From the IMG/VR virus record IMGVR_UViG_2671180637_000005: a DNA stretch of 18,478 bases, one strand, 5' to 3'. Of the stretch, positions 1-3,341 are shown piece after piece. Every line of letters begins with the position of its first letter. The stretch's first letter is position 1. Under the pieces are notes generated by a model. The model ran no database searches, was not told where the DNA came from, and saw only the letters and a list, made by a program, of their open reading frames with translations. Origin of the DNA: a virus (lineage: Duplodnaviria; Heunggongvirae; Uroviricota; Caudoviricetes). The position numbers and the translations under genes are program-made.

Positions 1-180
1 CAGTTTAAGAAAGAATATGAAATGATTAATTATAATGATGGTTGGTATTATGTTCTTGCTCGTTATGATAATTGTCTGGTTTTGTCTACTTCTTTTAATG
101 CAGGTAGTAAAAGGTTTGTCATTTATCAATCAGCACAAGATAAGAATCTTCAGGTTGATATTGTAAGGACCAGAATTTAA
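1..180 (+). CDS. 3' end of an unidentified protein-coding gene (partial, start lies outside the window)
   Basis: Frame 1 is open from base 1 to a TAA at 178-180 (60 codons, ...DGWYYVLARYDNCLVLSTSFNAGSKRFVIYQSAQDKNLQVDIVRTRI*). Visibly AT-rich compared with the structural genes. No family recognised. Confidence 0.35.
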   Translation, partial: QFKKEYEMINYNDGWYYVLARYDNCLVLSTSFNAGSKRFVIYQSAQDKNLQVDIVRTRI

Positions 181-427
181 TTGGCTGCATAAATAATATT
201 TTAAGTTGCAAGTTGGCTATTCGTAGGAATAGAACCTTAGGCATGCTGAATGCGTTTTCTGAACATTGTTTTATAAACTGTGTCTGCTTGCTGTTGTGAT
301 CCTGCTTTTAGTGATGGTGATGATGGATTTCACCAGCAGGATAATGTTGGTACTGACTGATGGCGCTCTGGTCTGCGGCATTGTGGTATTGCTGTGGCCG
401 ATGATGAAAAAACAGAATGAATAATCC

Positions 428-456
428 TTGACTTTTTTGTTTACTGTTTATTAAAA
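428..456 (+). promoter_or_regulatory. candidate sigma70-like promoter (TTGACT -35 with AT-rich -10-like sequence)
   Basis: TTGACT at 428-433 followed 15-17 nt later by TATTAA/TTAAAA. AT-rich context, so chance occurrence is possible. Confidence 0.25.
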
Positions 457-610
457 AATCAACCGCATGGTGAATCCTCCTTGGAGGGGCTAAATGATCG
501 AGTTTTAAGGGCACGTAGCGAGTTCTGTTTGATCATTGCAGAACTTAGCGGGAGGCGCCATGCGTACATCACTAATGTTATTTCCTTCTATCATTTTCCT
601 TGTGAGTTCT

Positions 611-636
611 GGCTGCGCATGGCGCGGCCTTTTTTT
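611..636 (+). terminator. intrinsic terminator-like hairpin plus T-run
   Basis: GGCTGCGC(611-618) / GCGCGGCC(622-629), 8 bp stem with one G-U pair and a 3-nt loop, then TTTTTTT (630-636). Confidence 0.4.
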
Positions 637-817
637 ATGACCTGCCACTGGCAGATGGTCATCCTGTGATTTGATTCCGGTTCCGGCTTTTTAACTCTGT
701 TCCTGTACACGGGAGAAATTCTATGTCGATTAATCGTTATGATATTGGTTACAAGAAGTACCACGTATTGTGTTGAGATAGAAAGCCTGGTGCCAGAGGT
801 AAATGCAGCAGCATAAT

Positions 818-880
818 AAAAAAGAGCCAGCGCAGAAGAGAACGGGTAAAAGAGTCTGCGCTGGCGTGGGGATATTCCCC
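818..880 (-). terminator. leftward intrinsic terminator-like structure (two adjacent hairpins, U-run on minus strand)
   Basis: 11-bp perfect inverted repeat GCCAGCGCAGA(826-836)/TCTGCGCTGGC(855-865) with 18-nt loop; second hairpin GGGGA-TAT-TCCCC (868-880). A6 run at 818-823 on + strand gives a U-run directly 3' of the stem on the minus-strand RNA. Confidence 0.4.
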
Positions 881-1044
881 GTGGAGAAATGATATGTAAC
901 ACACATCGGGAACCTTTCTATATAAACATTATCATTATTGTCAATCATAACAGTCAGGTATTATGACGTTTATGCATCAGGGCCATCAGGAATTAACTGG
1001 TGGCTTTTTATTGTTGTCAGCTTCCGGATAACGGGAGACGGGGT

Positions 1045-1260
1045 ATGTACCAGATGGAAAAAATAACAACAGGTGTGTCATACACCACGTCAGCGGTGGG
1101 GACGGGATACTGGCTACTGCAGTTGCTGGACAAAGTCTCCCCATCCCAGTGGGTGGCAATAGGCGTATTGGGTAGCCTGGTGTTTGGCTTGCTGACGTAT
1201 CTGACAAACCTTTATTTCAAGATTAAAGAAGATAAGCGTAAGGCTGCGAGAGGTGAATAA
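1045..1260 (+). CDS. pinholin, phage 21 S21-like class II holin with dual-start motif
   Basis: Translation [71 protein letters not shown] closely matches my recollection of S21 (...[15 protein letters not shown]...[20 protein letters not shown]). Two TMDs. Two in-frame ATGs at 1045 and 1054. Stop overlaps endolysin start (TAATG). Confidence 0.85.
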
Positions 1261-1757
1261 TGTCGCCATCATTACGCAAGGCTGTTGCTGCTGCTATTGG
1301 TGGTGGGGCTGTTGCCATAGCGTCTGTGCTCATCACTGGTCCGAGTGGTGACGATGGCCTGGAAGGTGTCAGCTACATACCATACGAAGATATCGTTGGC
1401 GTATGGACTGTATGTCACGGACACACCGGAAAAGACATCATTCCCGGTAAAACGTATACCGAAGCAGAATGCAAAGCCCTCCTGAATAAAGACCTTGCCA
1501 TGGTCGCCAGACAAATTAACCCGTACATCAAAGTCGATATACCGGAAACAACGCGCGGCGCTCTTTACTCGTTTGTTTACAACGTGGGCGCTGGTAATTT
1601 CAGAACATCGACGCTTCTTCGCAAAATAAACCAGGGTGATATCAAAGGCGCATGTGACCAGCTACGTCGCTGGACATACGCTGGCGGTAAGCAATGGAAA
1701 GGCCTGATGACTCGTCGTGAGATTGAGCGTGAAGTCTGTTTGTGGGGGCAGCAATGA
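1260..1757 (+). CDS. SAR endolysin (signal-anchor-release T4-lysozyme-type muramidase, R21-like)
   Basis: N-terminal Gly/Ala-rich weakly hydrophobic SAR segment ([21 protein letters not shown]) followed by E...D...T catalytic region ([16 protein letters not shown]). Near-identical to recalled phage 21 R. Confidence 0.9.
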
Positions 1758-2420: not shown

Positions 2421-2945
2421 ATGAATAATCATTCAGTTATTCCAGCCTTCGACTTCCGAGAAATGGTGCAAGCCAAAAACGGAGAGGTCGTTACCACATC
2501 CAGAAAAATTGCCAAGTACTTCGGCAAGCGACACGGTGATGTTCTCAGGAAAATCGAGCAGGTTAAGGCTGATTGCTCGCGTGAGTTTAGCCAACGCAAT
2601 TTTGCGTCGGCTGATTATATCGATGAGCAGGGCAAGGTTCGCCCGATGTACAGCCTGACGAAAGATGGCTGGATCATGGTTGTGATGGGGTTCACCGGGA
2701 AAGCTGCTGCGGCAATCAAGGAGAGCTATATCGCAGCATTCAACTGGATGGCAGAGCAACTGAGCCGCCGCATGGCAATTGGCGAAGAAATGCAGCACCG
2801 CTACGCCATCAAAGAAACACGCTCAAAGCTGAAAGGTACGATCGGCAGTCGGTTAATGAACGAACGGAAGAGAGAGAAGCGTGTCCTGGCTGTCGAGCAT
2901 GAATACATTTTGCAGGTGACACAGCCTGAACTGCTGATTAATTGA
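2421..2945 (+). CDS. Rha-family phage regulatory protein (moron position between lysis cassette and cos)
   Basis: N-terminal region ...VTTSRKIAKYFGKRHGDVLRKIEQ... matches the Rha signature as I recall it. ORF open from 2385, but ATG 2421 (MNNHSV) is the more plausible start. C-terminal ~80 aa unassigned. Confidence 0.7.
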   Translation: MNNHSVIPAFDFREMVQAKNGEVVTTSRKIAKYFGKRHGDVLRKIEQVKADCSREFSQRNFASADYIDEQGKVRPMYSLTKDGWIMVVMGFTGKAAAAIKESYIAAFNWMAEQLSRRMAIGEEMQHRYAIKETRSKLKGTIGSRLMNERKREKRVLAVEHEYILQVTQPELLIN

Positions 2946-3341
2946 AGATGTCATTACAAAGCCTATCTACGGGTGGGCTTGATAATGGCTTATACCCTGC
3001 ACGGGATAACTTAACTGATATCCCTTTTAACGGATAAAGGTATTCAGGCCAGACACATCATGCGCTGTATCGTCGCCGTATTCCCGCATTAACCATGACC
3101 GTAGCCCGACGGGGAACTCCTCTGCGTGAGTGTGCGGGAATAATCAAAAACGATGCACACCGGGTTTTTACCGCGTTTATGATTCGTGGGTTTGTCCCTC
3201 ATGCTCGCCAGTCCTGTGCGGGGGTGGAAGAAACAGGACACTTACACAGATTCTTGTGGGCACGATGCTATGCCTTTCTGGATTATCCCGATGCCATTCA
3301 TGCAAGGCGTTGTATCAGACGTTCGTCAGAGTTGTCAGGCT

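Follow-up and report, generated by a model that had tools for sequence, protein, structure and literature searches.

Genes and features of the locus

The window, by which we mean the whole stretch of 18,478 nucleotides of IMG/VR record IMGVR_UViG_2671180637_000005 (Caudoviricetes), begins inside a gene for a membrane protein, which is followed by a short hydrophobic open reading frame (ORF), by the small RNA gene pasD1 and, further downstream, by a class II holin gene. The features considered below are the following, in window coordinates.

1..180, plus strand: 3' end of the upstream gene (as annotated in E2348/69, where the locus is nearly identical; translation, PHROG and Pfam)
266..424, plus strand: DUF3927/TciB-family ORF of 52 aa with a TTG start (ORF list, RefSeq CDS, Pfam, PHROG and gapless alignment)
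300..700, plus strand: block homologous to the TerB-coupled lambdoid allele (window and locus L093 in local alignment)
314..424, plus strand: sub-ORF of 36 aa from ATG 314, the last 36 codons of 266..424
428..457, plus strand: pasD1 promoter-like element, with a -35 TTGACT (428-433), an 18-nt spacer and a -10 TAAAAA (452-457)
465..636, plus strand: PasD1, an Hfq-dependent sRNA of enteropathogenic Escherichia coli (EPEC) (coordinates of PMC8550237 Table S6 mapped onto the window)
481..669, plus strand: ORF of 62 aa, largely inside PasD1, whose equivalent in the phage 434 GenBank record is called "putative membrane protein"
505..903, minus strand: 399-nt RefSeq "hypothetical protein" of E2348/69, antisense to most of PasD1 and covering the Esr41-like RNA
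816..905, minus strand: Esr41-like sRNA (weak Rfam match of 32.3 bits, where the gathering score is 102; the terminator on the minus strand is clear)
979..1007, plus strand: hairpin and T run resembling a terminator; the class II holin gene starts about 40 nt further on, at 1045

The upstream gene encodes a polytopic membrane protein of 247 aa, named "hypothetical protein" or "STM1630 family" in RefSeq, which belongs to PHROG 1521 (E 1.9e-154) and carries the precomputed Pfam assignment PF27470 (TfpB); it ends 85 nt before TTG 266. Two of the reading frames that overlap PasD1 deserve less attention. The frame at 505..903 on the minus strand is split in the window into 591..902 and 505..648 by a one-T difference in the PasD1 terminator and is probably not a gene, and the ORF at 481..669 on the plus strand has no Pfam match and is probably a mis-call. 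In the region of the Esr41-like RNA, RIL-seq of E2348/69 gave minus-strand reads at NC_011601 1060613-1060654 with the behavior of an Hfq-dependent sRNA; they were filed as CDS E2348C_1013, with a log2FC of -2.9 in the hfq mutant.

The ORF at 266..424 is a known member of the DUF3927/TciB family

The original prediction placed an unannotated small hydrophobic peptide at 314-424, in an AT-rich segment. The peptide is present exactly as given (MVMMDFTSRIMLVLTDGALVCGIVVLLWPMMKKQNE*, the translation of window 314-424 on the plus strand), and the segment is indeed AT rich, with 29-47% GC across positions 1-1000 against about 50% in the lysis genes. It is, however, not unannotated. The peptide constitutes the C-terminal two thirds of a frame that is open from 263, ends with the TAA at 422-424 and yields, from the TTG at 266, a 52-aa product (MFYKLCLLAVVILLLVMVMMDFTSRIMLVLTDGALVCGIVVLLWPMMKKQNE; ORF list). 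RefSeq/PGAP has 266..424 as a "DUF3927 family protein" (WP_000499456.1), whose boundaries in E. coli E2348/69 are exactly 266..424 in window coordinates, and the GenBank record of phage 434 calls the equivalent ORF TciB. Of 5,426 complete E. coli genomes, 697 match bases 150-700, EPEC E2348/69 best of all (99.8% identical). A "DUF3927 family protein" CDS lies under every match listed, and RefSeq has exactly this ORF in every match listed among 678 genomes. Over positions 1-1300, the window differs from prophage PP4 of E2348/69 at three positions only. The older (2009) annotation of E2348/69 lacks the ORF in PP4 but does include its PP2 paralogue, E2348C_0687 (PMC8550237 tables).

Since the first 2.5 kb of the window contain 47 ORFs of at least 20 aa, the size of this ORF is no more than chance would give, and the case for a gene rests on homology. 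With Pfam PF13064 (DUF3927), whose curated gathering threshold is 25, the product scored 54.2 bits (E 1.4e-14), its residues 7-50 covering positions 7-49 of the 53-position profile; it also matched PHROG 1470, "TciB-like" (E 1.2e-17). It is 96% identical to TciB of phage 434 (CPT_434_69), which occupies the equivalent position, and 53% identical to P1 TciB across residues 21-52. We are nearly certain that 266..424 descends from a TciB/DUF3927 gene and is no type I toxin module; as a member of its family, it is already known and annotated.

Start codon, translation signals and protein architecture

We aligned the window ORF with family members from P1, from lambdoid phages (allele A, Evi and LMessi) and from N4-like virulent phages (TR2 and Pollock). 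The alignment is gapless in all 52 columns, and 12 residues are invariant (M1, K4, L14, D21, F22, T23, L30, D32, G33, L35, W44 and P45), all 12 of which are kept by the window ORF. TTG 266 shares its column with the ATG or GTG start of every other aligned member, and neither Met17 (ATG 314) nor Met27 (ATG 344) is conserved among the relatives. Because the alignment with the P1, lambdoid and N4-like TciB proteins runs without gaps over 52 residues, it sets the family start at TTG 266, not at ATG 314 or ATG 344. The start at ATG 314 was thus misplaced, the true family start lying 48 nt upstream of it. As to the alternative start at ATG 344, for which an AGGA 4-5 nt upstream had been put forward, the in-frame ATG is there, but the AGGA (338-341) is only 2 nt away from it. 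We rejected this start: the pairing is weak (-4.1 kcal/mol), the AGGA reads AGAA in allele A, and Met27 is a leucine in P1. Shine-Dalgarno pairing ranges from 0.4 to -4.1 kcal/mol over all candidate starts, compared to about -7 for the holin and endolysin genes, and by these energies no candidate start of the window ORF has a usable Shine-Dalgarno sequence.

In its full length, the product contains two hydrophobic segments, at about residues 2-20 and 26-47, with DFTSR between them, and not the one predicted transmembrane helix of the original prediction. The two segments are split by the invariant D21-F22-T23; D32-G33 is conserved within segment 2, and W44-P45 marks its end. Hydropathy maxima are 3.4-3.7 for products of 36 to 52 aa. 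Calling the product a small phage membrane protein was right in kind, the ORF descending from a real phage gene for a small membrane protein. Since its 52 residues consist almost wholly of two hydrophobic segments plus the invariant Asp-Phe-Thr, we take TciB to be, most probably, a small protein of the inner membrane. An N-in/C-in helical hairpin is suggested by hydropathy and, through Lys4 and the Lys-Lys at the C-terminus, by the positive-inside rule. The AlphaFold2 monomer was instead a single continuous helix over residues 2-51 (pLDDT 85, pTM 0.42), a model that neither supports nor settles the hairpin topology.

The TTGACT hexamer and the PasD1 sRNA gene

A promoter-like TTGACT had been noted 4 nt past the end of the ORF, and this spacing is correct (stop codon at 422-424, hexamer at 428-433). 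The -35 hexamer and the TTATTAAAAA stretch are conserved in allele A by local alignment; a consensus promoter scan did not call the 428..457 element. Because TTGACT and TAAAAA are correctly spaced from the mapped sRNA 5' end at 465, the hexamer is probably the -35 element of the sRNA gene pasD1 and not that of the ORF, and the element would act as the pasD1 promoter.

PasD1 was defined by Pearl Mizrahi et al. as NC_011601 1060260-1060432 (plus strand; PMC8550237 Table S6) and validated by Northern blot and RIL-seq (PMC8550237). The window sequence is identical to that of E2348/69 except in the terminator U tract, which has 7 T instead of 8. The terminator scan gave an intrinsic terminator composed of a stem at 611-629 and this U tract. 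The Rfam STnc100 model matched positions 435-640 with 40.2 bits, below its gathering score of 47 (E 5.8e-7), which fits the reported relationship between PasD and STnc100. The locus thus holds a lesson for annotation, in that a seemingly new peptide turned out to be a member of a known family, and the hexamer next to it probably belongs to a validated sRNA gene.

The neighborhood of tciB and an STnc100 or PasD gene is frequent, although not universal, among the relatives. In TerB-coupled lambdoid loci, an STnc100 gene (94-120 bits) starts 5-8 nt past the tciB stop codon, and the linkage also occurs in E. albertii, in two Enterobacter species (with a tRNA gene in between) and in one metagenome-assembled genome. 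We found no mention of it in the papers on Pas sRNAs that were consulted. In allele A, the -35 hexamer of the sRNA gene overlaps the tciB stop codon. The STnc100 genes near a tciB stop codon are located as follows, in the coordinates of each locus.

L093: 3173..3350
L165: 2113..2299
L182: 2679..2872 and 3148..3336
L172: 2936..3139
L174: 2953..3123

The type I toxin reading

The peptide had been likened to type I toxins, and its size, hydrophobicity and short charged C-terminus do resemble theirs; moreover, the gene of an abundant Hfq-dependent sRNA lies 41 nt downstream. According to this reading, the 36- or 52-aa form would depolarize the inner membrane, either as a type I toxin restrained by an RNA or as a stand-alone membrane-damaging peptide. 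Apart from peptide size and hydrophobicity, none of the testable features of a type I module was found. Over positions 181-460, no Sok-, Sib-, Rdl-, IstR-, Orz- or OhsC-like RNA was detected on either strand (Rfam, modelled families, E<=1), and a scan of the same interval gave no promoter-like or terminator-like site on the minus strand. PasD1 is transcribed in the same direction as the ORF, its complementarity to the ORF mRNA is no better than that of shuffled sequences (z -0.85 and -0.74), and the CUCACA target motif of PasD1 is absent from this mRNA. The statement that the peptide does not match Hok, Ldr, TisB, ShoB or Ibs held up, as no toxin family was found with Pfam, NCBIfam, PHROGs or PADLOC. 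The first three of these matched only DUF3927, and PADLOC gave no match at all. Finally, the family is normally coupled translationally to tciA, also in virulent N4-like phages, and type I modules are built otherwise. With neither an antisense or complementary RNA nor homology to a toxin family (Zor and DinQ included) found, we rejected the type I module and give practically no credence to a toxin or stand-alone membrane-damaging peptide.

In most relatives tciB is coupled to a TerB-like gene, and the family is under purifying selection

In P1, the start of tciB overlaps the stop of tciA, which encodes a TerB-domain protein, and the name TciB derives from the TerB homology of this neighboring gene. 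In lambdoid allele A, the GTG start overlaps the TGA (GTGA) of a gene for a TerB-like protein of 143-167 aa. The adjacency of tciB and a TerB-like gene is also annotated in Evi, LMessi, TR2 and Pollock, with an overlap or a gap of 0-1 nt, and the overlapping start and stop codons of the TerB-coupled members take the form GTGA or TGATG. Among 15 loci taken from different Enterobacterales species, 12 have a TerB-like ORF that runs up to the tciB start. The TerB-like/tciB unit thus recurs in P1, in lambdoid prophages, in N4-like virulent phages and in prophages of many Enterobacterales.

Most TerB-coupled pairs have a dN/dS (NG86) of 0.04-0.25, with values up to about 0.4 for the most distant pairs, and the TciB family is under strong purifying selection. 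Among 1.84 billion protein representatives, the family forms 26 clusters at 50% identity, composed of proteins of 39-81 aa that always stand alone. A TerB-TciB fusion, which we had considered as evidence for an interaction, was found in none of these 26 clusters. Membership in a defense system was likewise discarded: PADLOC had no match for TciB and, for the TerB-like protein, just one that was weak and meaningless. CRISPRi on P1 showed tciA, tciB and tciC all to be non-essential (PMC10695390), and our full-text literature searches returned no functional study of DUF3927, TciB or tciA.

In lambdoid prophages, the TerB-like/tciB pair is regularly preceded at close range by tRNA genes, and in P1 tRNA genes flank tciABC. 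The positions of these tRNA genes, in the coordinates of each locus, are as follows.

L093: 2168..2397, upstream of the TerB-like/tciB pair
L165: 1094..1334, upstream of the TerB-like/tciB pair
L003 (P1): 1131..1284 and 2716..2791, flanking tciABC

Across the family, TciB would be made in a fixed proportion with the TerB-like protein, and the two would act together at the inner membrane. In the simplest case, TciB would be the membrane-embedded partner or anchor of the TerB-like protein, a role that gene order and overlap suggest. It would act during phage development, in an accessory and not an essential capacity. A TerB-like protein with a coupled hydrophobic protein of 52-55 aa, strongly conserved across P1-like, lambdoid and N4-like phages, is in our opinion the part that is worth study.

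The window copy has lost its partner

The window copy lacks this arrangement. A profile search in six frames of the window, which begins inside the upstream gene, gave no TerB-like sequence, and the start of the window ORF is not coupled to the stop of a TerB-like gene as is typical of the family. The homology with allele A at 300..700 takes in codons 12-52 of the ORF and, for the sRNA gene, its promoter, 5' end and terminator; the first approximately 11 codons and everything 5' of about 300 are a different sequence. Since the homology begins only at about 300 (codon 12), we place a recombination joint inside the ORF. The idea that a piece of the TerB 3' end survives upstream of 266 was also discarded, there being no homology 5' of about 300 and no HMM match. 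From this sequence evidence, the window copy is orphaned and possibly decaying.

Several variants of the gene are found in related genomes. Copies in E. albertii with the window-type N-terminus have one to three tandem 7-residue (21-nt) repeats in segment 2; the repeats (EAGGWRL, or CGIVGLWD) add charges and remove the conserved Asp-Gly (proteins P0030, P0042, P0063, P0071 and P0072). In prophage PP5 of E2348/69, a 28-aa remnant annotated as "DUF3927 family protein" (locus L189 2033..2119, NC_011601 1288032..1288118) sits downstream of tRNA-Ile and tRNA-Arg genes, with no TerB-like gene left. The E2348/69 genome therefore contains, in total, two orphan tciB copies and one stump.

The window copy could then be a non-functional relic, a tciA-tciB unit broken by recombination and giving no useful translation, whose ORF owes its intactness only to the youth of the lineage and to the selected pasD1 promoter and upstream region next to its 3' end. 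Both the TerB partner and the translational coupling are lost, and the TTG start has no Shine-Dalgarno sequence. Ser28, present in all other aligned members, is a leucine in the window copy. The orphan lineage has 5 nonsynonymous substitutions against 0-1 synonymous ones, and 1 against 0 relative to phage 434, counts that are too small to tell neutrality from weak constraint; these 6 nonsynonymous changes include Leu5Pro, which puts a proline in segment 1. By eye, similarity to allele A within the shared block is about equal in the ORF and in the adjacent promoter region, and the versions in E. albertii and PP5 are degraded. Other observations speak against a relic. Over codons 12-48, the dN/dS between the window copy and allele A is 0.42 (17 changes) and not 1. 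The replaced N-terminus is still in frame, hydrophobic and in possession of Lys4-Leu5. The ORF is intact, with every invariant residue and no frameshift or stop, in 84 of 84 close IMG/VR loci and in all of the E. coli genomes listed. On balance, we consider a relic rather unlikely, if by no means implausible. The original prediction had looked to frame conservation and purifying selection for support: the frame is intact in the 84 loci and selection on the family is strong, but the window copy's own lineage is without sign of it.

Expression and possible activity of the window copy

Lysogen RNA-seq of E2348/69 gave baseMean values of 36.7 for the PP2 paralogue E2348C_0687, which is identical, 226 for the upstream gene, 11017 for pasD2 and 3-5 for the lysis genes (PMC8550237 Table S2). 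Judging from the PP2 values, transcription of the ORF, taken per base, roughly equals that of the upstream gene, and the sRNA exceeds it by far.

We hold it to be fairly probable, as far as sequence comparison goes, that the window ORF is an orphaned TciB gene, that its family acts with a TerB-like protein and that this copy is at most weakly translated. Recombination with a joint at about codon 12 would have replaced the first 11 codons and everything upstream, leaving the orphan copy. Its transcripts would come from read-through of the upstream gene in lysogens, or from Q-antiterminated late transcription after induction, and would be, at most, weakly translated. The DNA of the ORF may owe its retention in part to the pasD1 promoter, on which its 3' end borders. 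Whether the window copy still makes a working protein is, in our judgment, about evenly balanced; if translated and active, the orphan would offer a handle on the function of TciB without its partner.

Another explanation is that the ORF encodes a TerB-independent phage membrane modulator, for example a regulator of the downstream pinholin/SAR-endolysin lysis system, a superinfection exclusion factor or a partner of the upstream protein. Its place in the Q-dependent late region, with Q on one side and the lysis cassette on the other, would suit such a role. The ORF always follows the gene for the 247-aa membrane protein at a distance of 85 nt, in two E2348/69 prophages, in phage 434 and in many genomes, and in lysogens RNA per base is similar for the two, with the lysis genes silent. 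However, we see this pairing only in a single, almost clonal lineage, and inheritance together with the 247-aa gene therefore does not show that the two act together. The ORF has no Pfam match to holins, and the class II holin gene is 620 nt and two sRNA genes away; in the paralogues, a 1.85-kb esterase gene intervenes. In P1 and in N4-like phages, the family is nowhere near the lysis genes. A modulator of this type seems to us very improbable.

A wider proposal is that TciA and TciB, the latter as the membrane-embedded half, form a widespread phage module acting on the host inner membrane during phage development, and that the orphan keeps an activity of its own or works with the upstream protein. 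The orphan would also be tied, physically and perhaps in its regulation, to the PasD/STnc100 sRNA, whose promoter starts at the stop codon of the ORF. Such a module might, for example, protect membrane energization or exclude colicins or superinfecting phages. We regard this as speculative and unlikely, and retain the orphaned and at most weakly translated TciB gene as our reading of the locus.

Comparison with known systems

Like the type I toxins (Hok, Ldr, TisB, ShoB, Ibs and Zor), the window ORF specifies a small, very hydrophobic peptide beside a small RNA gene on a mobile element. It has no sequence relationship to them, however, and neither an antisense RNA nor a stand-alone transcription unit.

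DjlA combines a TerB-like domain with a J domain and has a membrane anchor of its own at the N-terminus. The TerB-like partner of TciB gave a sub-threshold match to the DjlA model (E 1.1e-6), and, by analogy only, DjlA may serve as a loose precedent for TerB-like domains at the inner membrane. In contrast to the DjlA anchor, TciB is a separate polypeptide, and there is no J domain.

The closest counterparts are those of phage 434 and PP2 (E2348C_0687, WP_000499454.1), which share with the window the succession of Q, the 247-aa protein, the 52-aa DUF3927 ORF and a PasD-type sRNA, and whose TciB proteins are 96-100% identical to that of the window. They differ in having a sialate esterase gene between the sRNA and the holin, while in the window, which is of the PP4 type, the sRNA region leads directly to the lysis cassette.

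The TerB-coupled lambdoid allele ("MTVKLRL...", 55 aa), common in Stx-type prophages, is homologous to the window from codon 12 to the sRNA terminator and, as in the window, is followed by an STnc100-family sRNA gene, there within 5-8 nt. It differs in its GTG start on the TGA of the TerB-like gene, in its upstream tRNA genes and in its C-terminal tail, KRNSLHNA.

P1 TciB (gp075) aligns with the window copy over its full length without gaps and shares the DFT, DG and WP motifs; both proteins are about 52-54 aa long, have two hydrophobic segments and are phage borne. In the C1-controlled ban operon of P1, tciB lies between tciA, whose stop it overlaps, and tciC, whereas the window copy, with neither tciA nor tciC, has other N-terminal 11 codons, a TTG start and a place in a lambdoid late region.
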